Part shown: in pieces, positions 1 through 48,895 of the stretch
Layout of the letters: every line of letters begins with the position of its first letter
How positions within the stretch are numbered: position 1 is the first letter of the stretch
Sequence record: OR995200.1
Length of the DNA stretch: 64,000 nt
Reading direction: 5' to 3' (one strand)
DNA from: Escherichia phage JY01
The notes under the pieces: model-generated
Database searches by the model: none
What the model was told of the DNA's origin: nothing
Seen by the model: only the letters and a program-made list of their open reading frames with translations
Program-made: the position numbers and the translations under genes

Positions 1-447
1 AATATAACAAATTACGTTATATTTTTCTTTTGCCTTTTTGAACAACTCTTCTTTTGAAGAATCATGACCACACATTAATATTTCTGAGAAGGCACCAGGA
101 AAAAGAGCATTCAAATTAAATTGACGATTCAGCAGAGCGTCAATAGAATCACCCAGTGCTGTAACAGCTACAAAATTATAATCTTCTTTTAATTTGTTAA
201 TTACACACAGGGCATCTTTATACGGAGACAAGTAACGAATAAAATCTGAACGATTGTATTTTTCAATTAACTTGACACCAAGTTCTTCATCGCAATTAAA
301 GAGCTTACCAGGAGAAATAAATTTTTCGTCCTGAATCATTTTTAAAATATGTTCTAATGGAAGATTATATTTTTGGGCAAAATAAGGAAGACCTGATTGC
401 CAGCTTAAACATACACCATCAATATCAGTCAAAATAGTAGGCTTCAT
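1..447 (-). CDS. HAD-superfamily hydrolase-like protein, partial (C-terminus runs off the window start); occupies the T4 30.2 position
   Basis: Minus-strand ATG at 445-447 overlapping the stop of the next ORF; N-terminus MKPTILTDIDGVCLSW carries a DxDx(T/V) HAD motif I; open to position 1. Confidence 0.5.
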   Translation of the reverse strand, partial: MKPTILTDIDGVCLSWQSGLPYFAQKYNLPLEHILKMIQDEKFISPGKLFNCDEELGVKLIEKYNRSDFIRYLSPYKDALCVINKLKEDYNFVAVTALGDSIDALLNRQFNLNALFPGAFSEILMCGHDSSKEELFKKAKEKYNVICYI

Positions 448-6466: not shown

Positions 6467-7874
<1,408 letters not shown>

Positions 7875-43092: not shown

Positions 43093-43123
43093 AATTATAC
43101 CACATCCTTGTGGTAAAGTAAAC
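43093..43123 (-). promoter_or_regulatory. T4-type early promoter module
   Basis: GTTTAC at 43118-43123 overlapping the gene 39 stop. Confidence 0.5.
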
Positions 43124-44943
43124 TACTGGCTCATCCATTCTTTACGAAGGTCAGCATTATCTCCCATGAGCATTTCAAAAAGATCTTTCCAGTTCTCAGG
43201 AAGTTTAACAACATCATATACTGGATTTTGAATCATCTCACGATATTCAGATTTTTCCAAAGAGCCAAGTCCCTTAATATAACGGATGCTATGTTTAGGT
43301 AGAGCATCTTTAGCACTCTCATATTCAGCGACTGTATAAAACCATTCTTGTTTTTTACCGACCTGGGCGATGATTACAGGAGTTTTGACAAAGCGAATTC
43401 GTCCTTGCTCAAACAATTCTGGCCAATTACTAAAAAATCCAAGAAGAGAAGGATAAATGCTTCCTAGACCATCATGGTCAGCATCAGTCATAATAGCAAT
43501 ATTATGATAATTCAAGTTTTCAGCTTTTTCACCAAGAACTAATCCAGTGATTGCGCAAATATCAAATAGTTCTTTGTTTTTAAGCATATCAGCATATGAC
43601 ATACCCCAACTGTTGAGAACTTTACCGCGCAATGGATAACCACCATGAAGTTCTTTATCACGAACATCAATAAGATATCCGATAGCAGAATCACCCTCAG
43701 TCAAGAAAAGAGTAGTATCAGCATCTTTACCGCAAAGATTCGCTTTGATATGTTTATGAACCTTTGCCTTAGAAGCCTTTTTAGCTGCTTTAGTTTCAGC
43801 TGCTTTTTCTGCTGCCAATTTACGAGCTAGTGCAGCTTCAATAATTGGCATCAGAATTGCTTCATTATTTAGAATAGCGCGTGAAATCTTTTTAGCGTCA
43901 AGTTGAATATGACTACGGATTTCACCAAATGGAGAAGTCAAACGCTCTTTAGTTTGAGAATCAAATCGCATGTTTTTCATATCACGAACAAACATAACGA
44001 TAGTCAAACATTCTTTAACACGTGCTTTAGTTACATCAATTTTGAACTTACGTTTGATTTGTGGAATAAGGTCTTCACAAATATCATCCATAACACAGTC
44101 AATGTGATGACCACCATTCTTAGTATGAATGTTATTGACGTATGTTAATTGACGAAAACCATCCGGTGAACGACCAACCGCAATAGAACAATTTTCTTGT
44201 TCTTGAACAATAGCATGCTCATCATATTGGCGTGCATATTTCTTAAAATTACCCTGAACCTTTTTACCGTTAAAGGTAAATTGAATATCAGGATAAACTA
44301 CTGCAAGTGTCTGGAGACGATCTAGTGTAATGTCAAGATAAACCTGAGATAGCTCATTAGTTTCAAATGACATAAAATCAGGAATGAAAGTAACACGAGT
44401 TCCTTTCCATTTTCCAGGAATATCTTCCCATGATTTATTTTCCATGCCATTTGAACAACGAACTACAATATTATTTTGACCGTCGCCAGTTTCACCGACA
44501 AACATAACAGAAAAAATGTTAGTTAAACTAGAGCCAACACCGTTCATACCGCCAGTGACGCGTTCTTTATCATCGCCGAAGTTACCACCTGCTTTTGGAA
44601 TAGTCCAGGCGGCAACAGGACCAGGAATTTCTTCACCAGTAGGTGTTTTAACCATCGCTTGTGGAATACCACGACCGTTATCTTCAACTGTTACTTGATT
44701 GTTTTTAATAGTAACGTTAATTTTATTTGCGAATTTAAACTTAGTACGAATACCTTCATCTACTGAGTTATCGATAATTTCATCAATAAGCTTAACAAGA
44801 CCAGGTACATACTGAACACTTTCCCATTTACCAAACAGAAAGCGCTCATGCATTTCATTAGCAGAAGAACCAATGTACATGCCGCTACGCTTTTTGATAT
44901 GTTCAATATCGCTCAGAATTTTAATTTCATTCTTAATCATCAC
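43123..44943 (-). CDS. 39: DNA topoisomerase II large subunit (GyrB-like), single fused ORF covering T4 genes 39 and 60
   Basis: 606-aa continuous ORF; N-terminal GHKL ATPase region and C-terminal Toprim region (LTEGDSAIGYL); no translational-bypass gap and no mobA. Confidence 0.9.
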   Translation of the reverse strand: MMIKNEIKILSDIEHIKKRSGMYIGSSANEMHERFLFGKWESVQYVPGLVKLIDEIIDNSVDEGIRTKFKFANKINVTIKNNQVTVEDNGRGIPQAMVKTPTGEEIPGPVAAWTIPKAGGNFGDDKERVTGGMNGVGSSLTNIFSVMFVGETGDGQNNIVVRCSNGMENKSWEDIPGKWKGTRVTFIPDFMSFETNELSQVYLDITLDRLQTLAVVYPDIQFTFNGKKVQGNFKKYARQYDEHAIVQEQENCSIAVGRSPDGFRQLTYVNNIHTKNGGHHIDCVMDDICEDLIPQIKRKFKIDVTKARVKECLTIVMFVRDMKNMRFDSQTKERLTSPFGEIRSHIQLDAKKISRAILNNEAILMPIIEAALARKLAAEKAAETKAAKKASKAKVHKHIKANLCGKDADTTLFLTEGDSAIGYLIDVRDKELHGGYPLRGKVLNSWGMSYADMLKNKELFDICAITGLVLGEKAENLNYHNIAIMTDADHDGLGSIYPSLLGFFSNWPELFEQGRIRFVKTPVIIAQVGKKQEWFYTVAEYESAKDALPKHSIRYIKGLGSLEKSEYREMIQNPVYDVVKLPENWKDLFEMLMGDNADLRKEWMSQ

Positions 44944-46757: not shown

Positions 46758-46852
46758 GTTATTTTCTGTATCAGTAGTTGATATTGATATAGTACCATAA
46801 TCAACTACTGATGTATATAGTTTTATGAAAAAATTTTAAACTTTATGCAAAT

Positions 46853-47272
46853 TTATGCTAAAGCTGCTTCGCACCATTTTTTAATTTGGAATTCAGGAAC
46901 TACCATGAACTGGCCTGCAAAAACAATATTGTAGAGCTTGACACCATCTTCTACCCAACGGTCCGAAATAAAACCAGCGACTTGATTCGTTGTCCATGGA
47001 GTTCCATCTGTTGCCGCCGCAATTGTGAATTTATGGTCTTTTACAACTAAAACTGAAGAACAAAGTTTCCATTTAAATGCGCTTTCTTCTGGCTCAATGA
47101 ACTGACTTGAGACATAACCAATGTTACCATCAGCGTCACGAACTTTAACCTCGTTACGACCAAAAACTGGATCACTTACAGAAAGAACTTCAACCAGCTT
47201 TCCTGCAACTTTAGAACGAGAAGCAACGGATACATATACGTAATCACCAGTAGAGAGATTTACAATATTCAT
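46853..47272 (-). CDS. paralog family member A (shared C-terminal domain)
   Basis: 139 aa; N-terminal ASRSKVAGKLVEV and C-terminal GFISDRWVEDGVKLYNIVFAGQF shared with the adjacent ORF. Confidence 0.55.
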   Translation of the reverse strand: MNIVNLSTGDYVYVSVASRSKVAGKLVEVLSVSDPVFGRNEVKVRDADGNIGYVSSQFIEPEESAFKWKLCSSVLVVKDHKFTIAAATDGTPWTTNQVAGFISDRWVEDGVKLYNIVFAGQFMVVPEFQIKKWCEAALA

Positions 47273-47281
47273 AATAATTCC

Positions 47282-47755
47282 TTAAGCTTTACGAGGAGAA
47301 GCATAACGAGTGATTTCAGATTCTTCAACAACCCGGAAGTCACCTAAGAATACGATATTGTAGAGCTTTTCACCATCTTCAACCCATTGGTCTGTGATGA
47401 AGCCACACATCCTATCAGTTTTACTTGGACCAGCGAAATCATCAATATAATCGAATTCTTCATCAGTTACAAATTCAACGCCTTTACACAACGCCCATTT
47501 AAATTGTGCATTAGACTCAGTGGATTCAACTTCTTCAACAGAAGCAAAATGAGAGCTAACACGAGTTTCCAGAAATTTAGGACTTACGTAAGCGTACTGA
47601 GTTTCAGTTTTTCCAGAACTAGGAATGATTCGAACTTTAACTTCTATAACACGACCAGTACCATTAGTACGAAGTCCTACCACTTCAACTAGACGACCTG
47701 CAGCTTTAGAACGAGATGCAGACGATACACGCTTAATTTCACCGATAGTAATCAT
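47282..47755 (-). CDS. paralog family member B
   Basis: 157 aa; ASRSKAAGRLVEV and GFITDQWVEDGEKLYNIVFLGDF motifs. Confidence 0.55.
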   Translation of the reverse strand: MITIGEIKRVSSASRSKAAGRLVEVVGLRTNGTGRVIEVKVRIIPSSGKTETQYAYVSPKFLETRVSSHFASVEEVESTESNAQFKWALCKGVEFVTDEEFDYIDDFAGPSKTDRMCGFITDQWVEDGEKLYNIVFLGDFRVVEESEITRYASPRKA

Positions 47756-47827
47756 AATTTTTCTCTCTTTATTGTTAAGATTTATTCTCCATGAGAGCCA
47801 TTATAACAGGCTCTCTATAAAGTAAAC

Positions 47828-48322
47828 TTAATTAAGGATATTAATTACTGCACTACGTGGAACTACACTAAAATCACCTGCATGAACAACGTTCAGAAGT
47901 TCAACACCGTCTTCAATCCACTGATCAGTTACCCATCCACTCACTGGACCTGCGAACGGACGTCGAATTGAAACAGCTTTACACAACAAATCAGTAGGCT
48001 CAATAGGCTTAACCAGAGTACCGTACATACAAGCGATATCCATATCAATACAGATGTCTTTAACGGGTTCTACTTCTTCAATCAACAGTTCAAAGTCGGT
48101 GCTTGGAAGGGCGGTAGTAGAAATTGTACCGTATGAATTTTTAATTTCTAAGAATAACCAAGAGCCTTCAACTTGTTTGATGAAGTTAACAATAGTGAAA
48201 CTATTACCTTGAGTGGCGCCTAAAATTTCACAAAACTTTTCATAAGCTCGCACTGAAGCACCATACCAGTTGATTTGCTTTTCGTCTTTCAGGATGTAAG
48301 TAGCTGTAGTACTGATATTCAT
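47828..48322 (-). CDS. paralog family member C (C-terminal domain only)
   Basis: 164 aa; C-terminal GWVTDQWIEDGVELLNVVHAGDF matches A and B. Confidence 0.55.
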   Translation of the reverse strand: MNISTTATYILKDEKQINWYGASVRAYEKFCEILGATQGNSFTIVNFIKQVEGSWLFLEIKNSYGTISTTALPSTDFELLIEEVEPVKDICIDMDIACMYGTLVKPIEPTDLLCKAVSIRRPFAGPVSGWVTDQWIEDGVELLNVVHAGDFSVVPRSAVINILN

Positions 48323-48334
48323 GATGTTTTCCCC

Positions 48335-48838
48335 TTAATCTAAGGTAATAAAGCCTTTTAATTCGGCATGTGACTTGCGGAACATTACTTGATGACCGCC
48401 AATGATAACTTGGTCATCAGGTACTTCGTATACAGCGAGATAAAATCCTTTAGAAGCTAATTCTTCACGCTCTTCTCGTGTGAACCATCTCATCATATCA
48501 TATTCGCTAGCGAAAGCAAAATGATAAAGAGCTATAAACCATCCTGGAATATAGTGATCTACGCCTACATATTCTTCTTTCTCAAAATTAGTATTAATTG
48601 CTATATTAGCATTTTTAACTAATAGTTTGTCTTCGTGCGGAAGAGGAATTCTTTTATTATCATTACTATGATGCATAAAATTAGGTCTGTCATAACCTAC
48701 GTGTAATAACCACTCTTCACTCCATGAATCTATTATACTCCTGTACGGAGTTATTTGAACACAAAGATCTCGACGTATTGTTATAGCATCTTCATAATTA
48801 AGAATACTAAATGATGATTCAACACGATAAATTTTCAT
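48335..48838 (-). CDS. hypothetical protein
   Basis: 167 aa from MKIYRVESS; the track ORF start lies inside the promoter module. Confidence 0.45.
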   Translation of the reverse strand: MKIYRVESSFSILNYEDAITIRRDLCVQITPYRSIIDSWSEEWLLHVGYDRPNFMHHSNDNKRIPLPHEDKLLVKNANIAINTNFEKEEYVGVDHYIPGWFIALYHFAFASEYDMMRWFTREEREELASKGFYLAVYEVPDDQVIIGGHQVMFRKSHAELKGFITLD

Positions 48839-48862
48839 TTTATTATCCTCAGTAGCTATGGT

Positions 48863-48895
48863 GTTATAATACCACAACTAACCGAGGAAGTAAAC
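48863..48895 (-). promoter_or_regulatory. T4-type early promoter module
   Basis: GTTTAC at 48890-48895 with a TATAAT-containing -10. Confidence 0.5.

Follow-up and report, generated by a model that had tools for sequence, protein, structure and literature searches.

A cluster of three MotB-family genes with a common C-terminal domain in the T4-like Escherichia phage JY01

The three genes and their relationship

The DNA studied here, referred to as the window, is a 64,000-nucleotide stretch of Escherichia phage JY01 (sequence record OR995200.1). Its positions 46853-48322 are occupied by three back-to-back open reading frames (ORFs) on the minus strand, coding for proteins of 139, 157 and 164 amino acids (aa). 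They are transcribed in the order motB.1 (164 aa), motB (157 aa) and a MotB-like paralog (139 aa), and are listed together with their substructures in Table 1. A preliminary description of this locus had presented them as consecutive minus-strand ORFs with a C-terminal block in common, and both the coordinates and the motif were verified in all three. We consider it highly probable that the trio represents a MotB-family cluster, in which each protein is built of two small barrels connected by a flexible linker, the C-terminal module is common to all, and the genes are old paralogs that have been kept by selection and reshuffled.

The 157-aa gene is identified by similarity as motB, in an RB69-type allele. 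Its product is 99% identical to RB51 MotB, 85% to RB69 MotB and, in an end-to-end alignment, 46% to T4 MotB (E = 8e-44). The 164-aa gene is assigned in the same way to motB.1, with identities of 74% to RB51 MotB.1, 38% to T4 MotB.1 and, as judged by eye, ~95% to the RB69 protein. The 139-aa gene is classified as an additional MotB-like copy without a T4 counterpart; its product is 100% identical to the RB51 and RB68 protein and 37% identical to T4 MotB (E = 2e-21). Several independent lines support these identities, as synteny, annotation, Pfam, PHROG, BLASTP and hhalign all concur. The cautious suggestion in the preliminary description that one of the genes might be MotB or a motB.x gene is thus borne out by two of them.

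Pairwise BLASTP comparisons, with E-values computed at a nominal database size of 1e6, gave similarities far above chance. The 139- and 157-aa proteins are alignable in full length, with 40% identity (E = 3e-25). The 164-aa protein matches the 157-aa protein in C-terminal residues only (E = 8.6e-8) and is also similar to the 139-aa protein (E = 3.5e-7), its C-terminal matches spanning 29-42 residues. All three proteins score above the gathering threshold of 25 bits for the Pfam family PF17613 ("motB", "Modifier of transcription"), with 72.1 bits for the 139-aa, 140.4 bits for the 157-aa and 35.0 bits for the 164-aa protein. The match is full length in the 157-aa protein (profile positions 2-158 of 162) and confined to the C-terminal part (aa 84-159) in the 164-aa protein. 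Among PHROGs, the 139- and 157-aa proteins belong to phrog_1671 ("MotB-like transcriptional regulator"; E = 1e-50 for the 139-aa protein), and the 164-aa protein to phrog_2333 (E = 7e-83 over aa 1-164) with a cross-match to phrog_1671 (E = 4e-15). Such cross-matches are reciprocal and extend via the C-terminus. In comparisons of profiles by hhalign, C-terminal domains of the MotB clade and of the MotB.1 clade are related with 99.2% probability (E = 5.6e-20, 50 columns), and the 164-aa protein has an N-terminal domain unrelated in sequence to those of the other two (probability 0.2%). The view of these genes as diversified tandem paralogs therefore agrees with BLASTP, PF17613 and hhalign results alike, and the two genes that have T4 orthologs, of which only MotB is characterised, are related to each other.

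The core G-[WFY]-[VI]-[ST]-D-[QR]-W-[VI]-E-D-G-x-x-L-x-N-[IV]-V was found in 3/3 proteins. The C-terminal block delimited in the preliminary description is real, but the shared region is longer, beginning at a conserved LC(K/S)xV strand that precedes the C-terminal end by ~55-70 residues (alignment A5). Within the shared domain, D, W, E, D, G, L and N do not vary. In MotB, residues D122, W124, E126, G128, L131 and N133 are invariant among 62 sequences of the MotB clade (alignment A2). Segments ASRSK(V/A)AG(K/R)LVEV and FKW.LC, attributed previously to the 139- and 157-aa proteins, are both present in them, and the N-terminal motif S-x-S-R-S-K-x-A-G characterizes these two proteins and does not occur in the 164-aa protein.

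The relationship is correct but already known, being that of the described MotB/MotB.1 family of T4-like phages. A conserved C-terminal domain common to MotB and MotB.1, combined with different N-terminal domains, was reported by Patterson-West et al. (2021, PMC7827196), together with two motB copies plus motB.1 in RB69. Since the shared domain and multi-copy genomes are published and the family is annotated, our result is a rediscovery. Its discovery value is small: the family is included in Pfam and PHROGs, RefSeq entries are labelled "MotB-like" and the relationship dates from 2021. The present work adds a re-assignment of the fold to small barrels, the partition of charge between domains, the age and selection of the paralogs, and frameshifts in reference sequences, all of them incremental.

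Table 1. Features of the three-gene cluster in the window (AF2, AlphaFold2; pLDDT, predicted local distance difference test)
Feature	Residues (aa)	Positions	Strand	Description	Basis
Extra MotB-like paralog	139 in total	46853..47272	-	= RB51ncORF010c, RB68 gp10, RB69p010	ORF
motB ortholog	157 in total	47282..47755	-	RB69-type allele	ORF, Pfam PF17613, similarity
motB.1	164 in total	47828..48322	-		ORF, PHROG 2333, Pfam PF17613
C-terminal core in MotB.1	129-154	47861..47938	-	GWVTDQWIEDGVELLNVVHAGDFSVV	alignments A1, A5
C-terminal core in MotB	118-143	47327..47404	-	GFITDQWVEDGEKLYNIVFLGDFRVV	alignments A1, A5
C-terminal core in 139-aa paralog	100-125	46898..46975	-	GFISDRWVEDGVKLYNIVFAGQFMVV	alignments A1, A5
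MotB N-terminal domain	1-64			predicted KOW/SH3-like; strands 7-10, 22-30, 36-43, 53-57	AF2
MotB linker	65-84			acidic, predicted disordered	AF2
MotB C-terminal barrel	85-157			predicted strands 92-105, 109-126, 129-136, 139-144, 3-10 turn, 148-151	AF2
MotB.1 N-terminal domain	1-84			predicted LSm/SH3-like; beta-alpha-beta-beta-beta-alpha-beta, aa 8-83	AF2
MotB.1 linker	85-105			predicted disordered	AF2
MotB.1 C-terminal barrel	106-164			predicted strands 116-119, 127-137, 140-147, 150-155, 3-10 turn, 159-161	AF2
Short linear motif in MotB.1 linker	93-100	48023..48046	-	DMDIACMY	pattern scan; AF2 pLDDT <50
motB.1-motB spacer		47793..47827	-	early-promoter-like GTTTAC (47822-47827)...TGtTATAAT	read by eye

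Domain architecture and charge

In AF2 models built with family alignments, both types of domains are folded as SH3/Tudor-like small barrels, with pLDDT of ~85-92 in domain blocks and disordered linkers. Mean pLDDT is 82.1 for MotB, falling below 50 in residues 66-82, and 78.8 for MotB.1, falling below 50 in residues 86-105. Each modelled C-terminal domain has five strands, the fourth and fifth being separated by a short 3-10 turn, and the core of MotB.1 overlies strands 127-137, 140-147 and 150-155. The 139-aa paralog follows the two-domain plan of MotB, with the linker shrunk to 4 aa. According to the models, MotB and the 139-aa copy would open with a KOW/SH3-like barrel (SRSKxAG) and MotB.1 with an unrelated LSm-like barrel, while the common C-terminal barrel may be recognized by the family signature G(W/F)xTDQWxEDGxxLxNxV. 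Kim et al. (2025, PMC12152347) predicted that MotB.1 starts with an LSm-like domain which has GoF and Frd.2 among its relatives. An internal duplication, i.e. homology between N- and C-terminal domains of MotB, was also considered and obtained no support (profile comparison probability <=1%).

The modelled domains resemble SH3-like small beta-barrels such as Tudor, chromo, PWWP, KOW and domain I of EF-P/eIF5A. A sequence search among solved structures disclosed no relatives, the best hit (E = 0.36) being a chance match to gingipain. In a fold search of BFVD, the best matches were relatives of MotB and MotB.1. The other significant hits (E down to ~1e-5) were to phage proteins that are uncharacterised or bear generic names, among them one "KOW domain-containing" and one "DUF1653" entry, and none of these has a demonstrated function.

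The linker of the window MotB.1 carries the short motif DMDIACMY, followed directly by GTLVKPIEP. The pattern D-x-D-[IVLMT]-x-x-[MTLAI]-Y was detected in 103 of 281 family sequences (280 fetched sequences and the window MotB.1), with the consensus D-x-D-[IVL]-x-[SC]-[MTA]-Y, and 101 of the 103 carriers also have the C-terminal core. The C-terminal domain was of the MotB.1 type in every carrier inspected. The position of the motif varies with architecture, either at the N-terminus or in the linker. Motifs of this kind could be docking peptides.

Comparison with T4 proteins emphasizes the regularity of this organization. T4 MotB (NP_049626, 162 aa; PF17613; phrog_1671) occupies the same genomic slot and has the same two-domain plan as the window MotB, with the N-terminal motif SRSKAAGK and the C-terminal core FKWxL...G(F/Y)ITDQWVEDG(V/E)KLYN(I/V)VF. 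The 139-aa copy differs from it in forming a separate clade, in having almost no linker and in its non-basic N-terminal domain. T4 MotB.1 (P39415/NP_049627; phrog_2333; categories 2-4 of Patterson-West et al. 2021) adjoins motB upstream, as does the 164-aa gene, and shares with it the C-terminal domain DPTDLLCKAV...GWVTDQWIEDGVELLNVVHAG and an N-terminal domain that may be LSm-like. MotB.1 of the T4 type is devoid of the DMDIACMY motif, whereas the linker of the window MotB.1 is longer and carries it.

The window MotB has an isoelectric point (pI) of 5.2 and a net charge of -4, distributed as +6 in the N-terminal and -7 in the C-terminal domain. T4 MotB differs in its pI of 9.2 and net charge of +6, although the N-terminal domain is basic in both. 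The window protein is acidic overall because its C-terminal domain has a net charge of -7 where that of T4 has +1. The description of MotB as a "highly basic DNA-binding protein" is accordingly not transferable to RB69-type alleles. Within the MotB clade proper, net charges of the N-terminal domain range from +1 to +9 (mean ~+5) and the linker is acidic; the N-terminal mean is +4.5 over all 62 rows of alignment A2, in which the 139-aa clade is included. In the 139-aa clade this domain ranges from -2 to +1, and in the 139-aa protein of the window (pI 5.4) it amounts to -1 or -2, depending on the boundary chosen. C-terminal domains in general span from -7 to +3. Those of MotB.1 are between -5 and 0, and both halves of this protein are acidic.

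Distribution, selection and frameshifted reference records

The trio is part of a long run of minus-strand genes, comprising gene 39, 39.1, 39.2, goF, cef, an 89-aa ORF, the trio itself, motB.2, dexA and dda. Flanked by cef/goF on one side and motB.2/dexA on the other, it belongs to the classical nonessential early region, in agreement with the early accessory region named in the preliminary description. The order in this syntenic slot of Tevenvirinae, from cef/goF to dexA, agrees with RB51, Sf23, T4 and RB69. The RB69 (Mosigvirus) cluster is arranged as motB.1, motB and RB69p010, in the same order as in the window, with 85% identity in MotB and ~88-90% for the 139-aa protein in Mosigvirus-type relatives. 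A difference is in motB.2, which in RB69 resides downstream of the 139-aa gene and not upstream of motB.1. On sequence grounds, the window is assigned to a T4-like phage (Tequatrovirus): a 1.7-kb stretch is 99.6% identical to the Tequatrovirus genomes CAM-21, KRT47, Ge15 and Sf23, and 93.7% identical to RB51 and RB68. ORFs on the plus strand inside the trio region, the longest of 101 aa and antisense to motB, are unsupported and were treated as noise.

The same 1.7-kb stretch matches 688 phage records in all, and in 170 phage records the three-gene stretch is covered over at least 80% of its length. Copies of the 139-aa gene with at least 80% identity exist in 207 of the 777 phage records bearing MotB relatives (tblastn), and the gene is intact in ~207 records that span Tequatrovirus and Mosigvirus. 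Searching 1.84 billion representatives with the C-terminal domain profile retrieved 26 clusters only. Their members are all small and carry the domain C-terminally, and no new fusion partner of known function was found among them. The MotB family is narrow by this measure.

Comparison of the 139-aa gene with its JK45 ortholog gave a ratio of nonsynonymous to synonymous substitution rates (dN/dS) of 0.12, at dS = 0.68. The ratio is 0.25-0.34 for motB and 0.29 for motB.1. These values indicate that each of the genes is under purifying selection. Codons are identical at 33/59, 6/16 and 7/20 of identical residues between paralogs, which is about the level allowed by saturated synonymous sites. Recent gene conversion as the source of the conserved block is ruled out by these proportions. 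Because synonymous sites are scrambled, the paralogs appear to be old and the block to be maintained by selection at the protein level.

Traces of shuffling are found in family members from the database. Some chimeras (P0104, P0036) combine an N-terminal domain of T4-type or RB69-type MotB with a C-terminal domain of the 139-aa type, and others (P0165, P0268 and others) a KOW-like N-terminal domain with a C-terminal domain of the MotB.1 type. In addition, the 43-aa ORF P0279 consists of the first 16 residues of MotB.2 and the last 27 of MotB.1, and represents a deletion product. As far as these sequences tell, the locus is a hotspot of recombination and deletion among T-even phages.

Inspection of motB.1 records revealed that the T4 reference (NC_000866/AF158101) has one extra G, reading TGGATTGGAAGATGG compared with TGGATT-GAAGA(C/T)GG, or ATTGGAAG compared with ATTGAAG in its closer context (~7289-7300 of the NC_000866.4 record, corresponding to ~47912-47925 of the window). 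The T4 reference MotB.1 consequently stops within the signature motif, after 119 aa, and is deprived of the last 28 residues of the C-terminal domain; the next frame reads on as LEDGVELLNVVHAGEYSVVPRSAVVAILN. An intact MotB.1 of 143 aa (P0121), otherwise identical, is present in eleven other T4 records and in RB55 and RB59. The 119-aa protein of the T4 reference probably owes its length to this single additional base and is then an artefact, and in most T-even phages MotB.1 is full-length, its MotB-type domain being complete. Published experiments report a MotB.1 protein of 13.8 kDa (PMC12152347), a mass which implies that the 119-aa form was used, and T4 constructs with stated coordinates were designed on NC_000866.4. 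In the literature searched, the two papers mentioning motB.1 do not contain the word "frameshift", use "truncat" only with regard to H-NS, and leave the extra base unremarked. Since the 119-aa form is probably artefactual, the published null phenotypes of MotB.1 deserve re-testing.

Two 1-nucleotide insertions are located in the C-terminal domain of motB.1 in the RB69 reference (NC_004928.1, 3877-4373), splitting the gene into a 132-aa ORF and a 29-aa ORF (RB69p012). Read through the insertions, the gene encodes the protein that is ~95% identical to the window MotB.1. Patterson-West et al. (2021) listed an orphan "29-aa peptide" as a category of its own, which is explained by these insertions. 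Names of some records also seem to be propagated errors. The MotB.1-type protein of a Hafnia phage (P0180) is named "putative adenylribosylating enzyme", and the RefSeq name "dextranase" for dexA.2 apparently originates from the gene name.

Possible function of the cluster and surrounding sequences

To judge by the title of a 2021 article by Son et al., as it is cited, MotB reportedly belongs to the nucleoid-associated proteins, compacting DNA and relieving the silencing exerted by H-NS. T4 MotB is an abundant early protein and binds double-stranded DNA tightly without sequence preference (PMC6070864, PMC7827196). It is toxic to E. coli, basic (predicted pI 9.23), about doubles the burst size and copurifies with DNA, H-NS and StpA (Patterson-West et al. 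2018, PMC6070864). It also alters the H-NS footprint and up-regulates 75 host genes, of which about one third belong to the H-NS regulon (Patterson-West et al. 2021, PMC7827196). For T4 MotB, the host-directed role proposed in the preliminary description is thus experimentally supported. Knock-down of motB barely changed the T4 transcriptome (PMC6070864), and the label "transcriptional regulator" is a legacy without support from these data. Early phage proteins T7 gp5.5 and T4 Arn, which likewise relieve H-NS silencing, are functional analogues only. They bind H-NS directly, whereas MotB meets it only through DNA (PMC7827196), and they have no kinship with the MotB family in sequence or fold.

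By analogy with T4, the window MotB probably acts as T4 MotB does, through its basic N-terminal barrel. Nonspecific DNA binding would reside mainly in this KOW-like domain, to which we assign it because of the positive charge there and the invariants D, W, E, D, G, L and N of the shared domain. The C-terminal barrel does not appear to clamp DNA by generic electrostatic attraction, given its neutral to acidic charge in most members and its invariants D, W, E, D and G. More likely, this barrel is a common module for interaction or assembly, mediating self-association, association between paralogs, or contact with one common partner, and the three genes would couple this one module to three different heads. 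A more specific form of this proposal is unlikely, in our estimate: the C-terminal barrel would be a Tudor/SH3-like module for peptides or partners, joining the three paralogs to each other or to one host target that they have in common, with the mobile D-x-D-[IVL]-x-[SC]-M-Y of MotB.1-type proteins as its ligand, and the charge-neutral 139-aa copy and the acidic MotB.1 would modulate MotB nucleoprotein assemblies as caps, competitors or adaptors. The peptide ICIDMDIACMYGTLVKPIEP may then be a candidate partner for the C-terminal domain. If true, the cluster would be a small phage-encoded tunable kit for chromatin remodelling and not three independent DNA binders. The natural series of basic MotB, neutral 139-aa and predicted LSm-like MotB.1 heads on one C-terminal barrel offers a ready-made domain dissection, suited to locating the DNA-binding part of MotB and to clarifying the role of the invariant C-terminal motif.

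Several points weigh against this interpretation. The biochemical data come from T4 MotB. DNA binding by the window MotB is an extrapolation across 46% identity, given its pI of 5.2 in comparison with 9.2, and either of the MotB domains could bind DNA according to PMC7827196. The arguments for an interaction module consist of charge and conservation. AlphaFold 3 homomultimer models of T4 MotB.1 are not confident, and T4 motB.1 knock-outs show no phenotype (PMC12152347), although the reference sequence of that background has the truncated gene.

Differences in copy number and alleles between close phages, in a variable early accessory region, could also be the mark of a dedicated anti-defence module, in which each paralog counters a specific immune system and has diversified in an arms race; in addition, T4 MotB counteracts H-NS silencing, arguably a xenogeneic defence (PMC7827196). 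This specific role, put forward in the preliminary description, is not sustained by our results. The trio has no match to any PADLOC model, and the literature searched links neither MotB nor MotB.1 to a defence system. Moreover, dN/dS values of 0.12-0.34 are purifying overall and not diversifying, and a signature that is near-invariant across clades fits a conserved partner better than a changing target. We regard an anti-defence module as highly improbable. An activity on RNA, with the proteins, and MotB.1 especially, being post-transcriptional regulators made of KOW-like and LSm-like barrels, is suggested by the nature of the predicted folds and seems rather unlikely: T4 MotB.1, in its 119-aa form, had no clear effect in a reporter with the gene 41 5' untranslated region (PMC12152347), an acidic protein is a poor RNA binder, and MotB is experimentally a binder of double-stranded DNA (PMC6070864).

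It could further be supposed that only motB matters and that the extra copies are redundant duplicates in the course of being lost. The absence of the 139-aa gene from T4, the frameshifts in motB.1 of the T4 and RB69 references, the motB.2-motB.1 deletion fusion P0279 and the dispensability of the region in the laboratory (PMC6070864) would accord with such a loss. However, dN/dS is lowest in the 139-aa gene, which is also intact across two genera, motB.1 is intact in the T4, RB55 and RB59 records listed above, and systematic differences in charge and linker indicate functional divergence of the paralogs. Loss of redundant copies is, in our view, extremely improbable, and a selected cluster of divergent MotB-family proteins with one C-terminal module in common remains the preferred explanation.

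The spacer between motB.1 and motB contains a sequence that is likely an early promoter upstream of motB, with the -10 hexamer at 47800-47805 and a spacing of 15. GTTTAC(A)...TATAAT also precedes motB in T4 and JK45. A 7-bp hairpin, GAGAGCC/GGCTCTC (47793-47815), encloses the -10 element (RNA fold -18.5 kcal/mol, z = -3.3), and in T4 the stem of the spacer hairpin is GGGACC/GGTCCC (z = -4.1), differing in sequence from that in the window, with the pairing preserved. A generic scan for sigma-70 promoters and terminators gave no excess (11 found, 9.8 expected from shuffles), and missed GTTTAC...TATAAT because of its spacing of 15. The 139-aa gene is followed by a spacer of 95 bp, in which a 13-bp perfect inverted repeat, ATCAGTAGTTGAT...ATCAACTACTGAT, was observed at 46770-46812 on the minus strand (fold -22.3 kcal/mol, z = -5.6). 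This repeat is not a classical intrinsic terminator, because no U-tract follows it.

Among neighbouring genes, motB.2 (48335-48877, minus strand) shows no sequence similarity to the trio proteins by BLASTP and owes its name to position only. Its program-made ORF of 180 aa opens at TTG, while the ATG that serves as start in the T4, RB51 and Sf23 orthologs comes 13 codons later (167 aa, 48335-48838). The large subunit of topoisomerase II (gene 39; 43123-44943, minus strand) is encoded by one ORF of 606 aa, as in RB51 and RB69, whereas its T4 counterpart is split into gene 39 of 1551 nucleotides (516 aa) and a separate gene 60.

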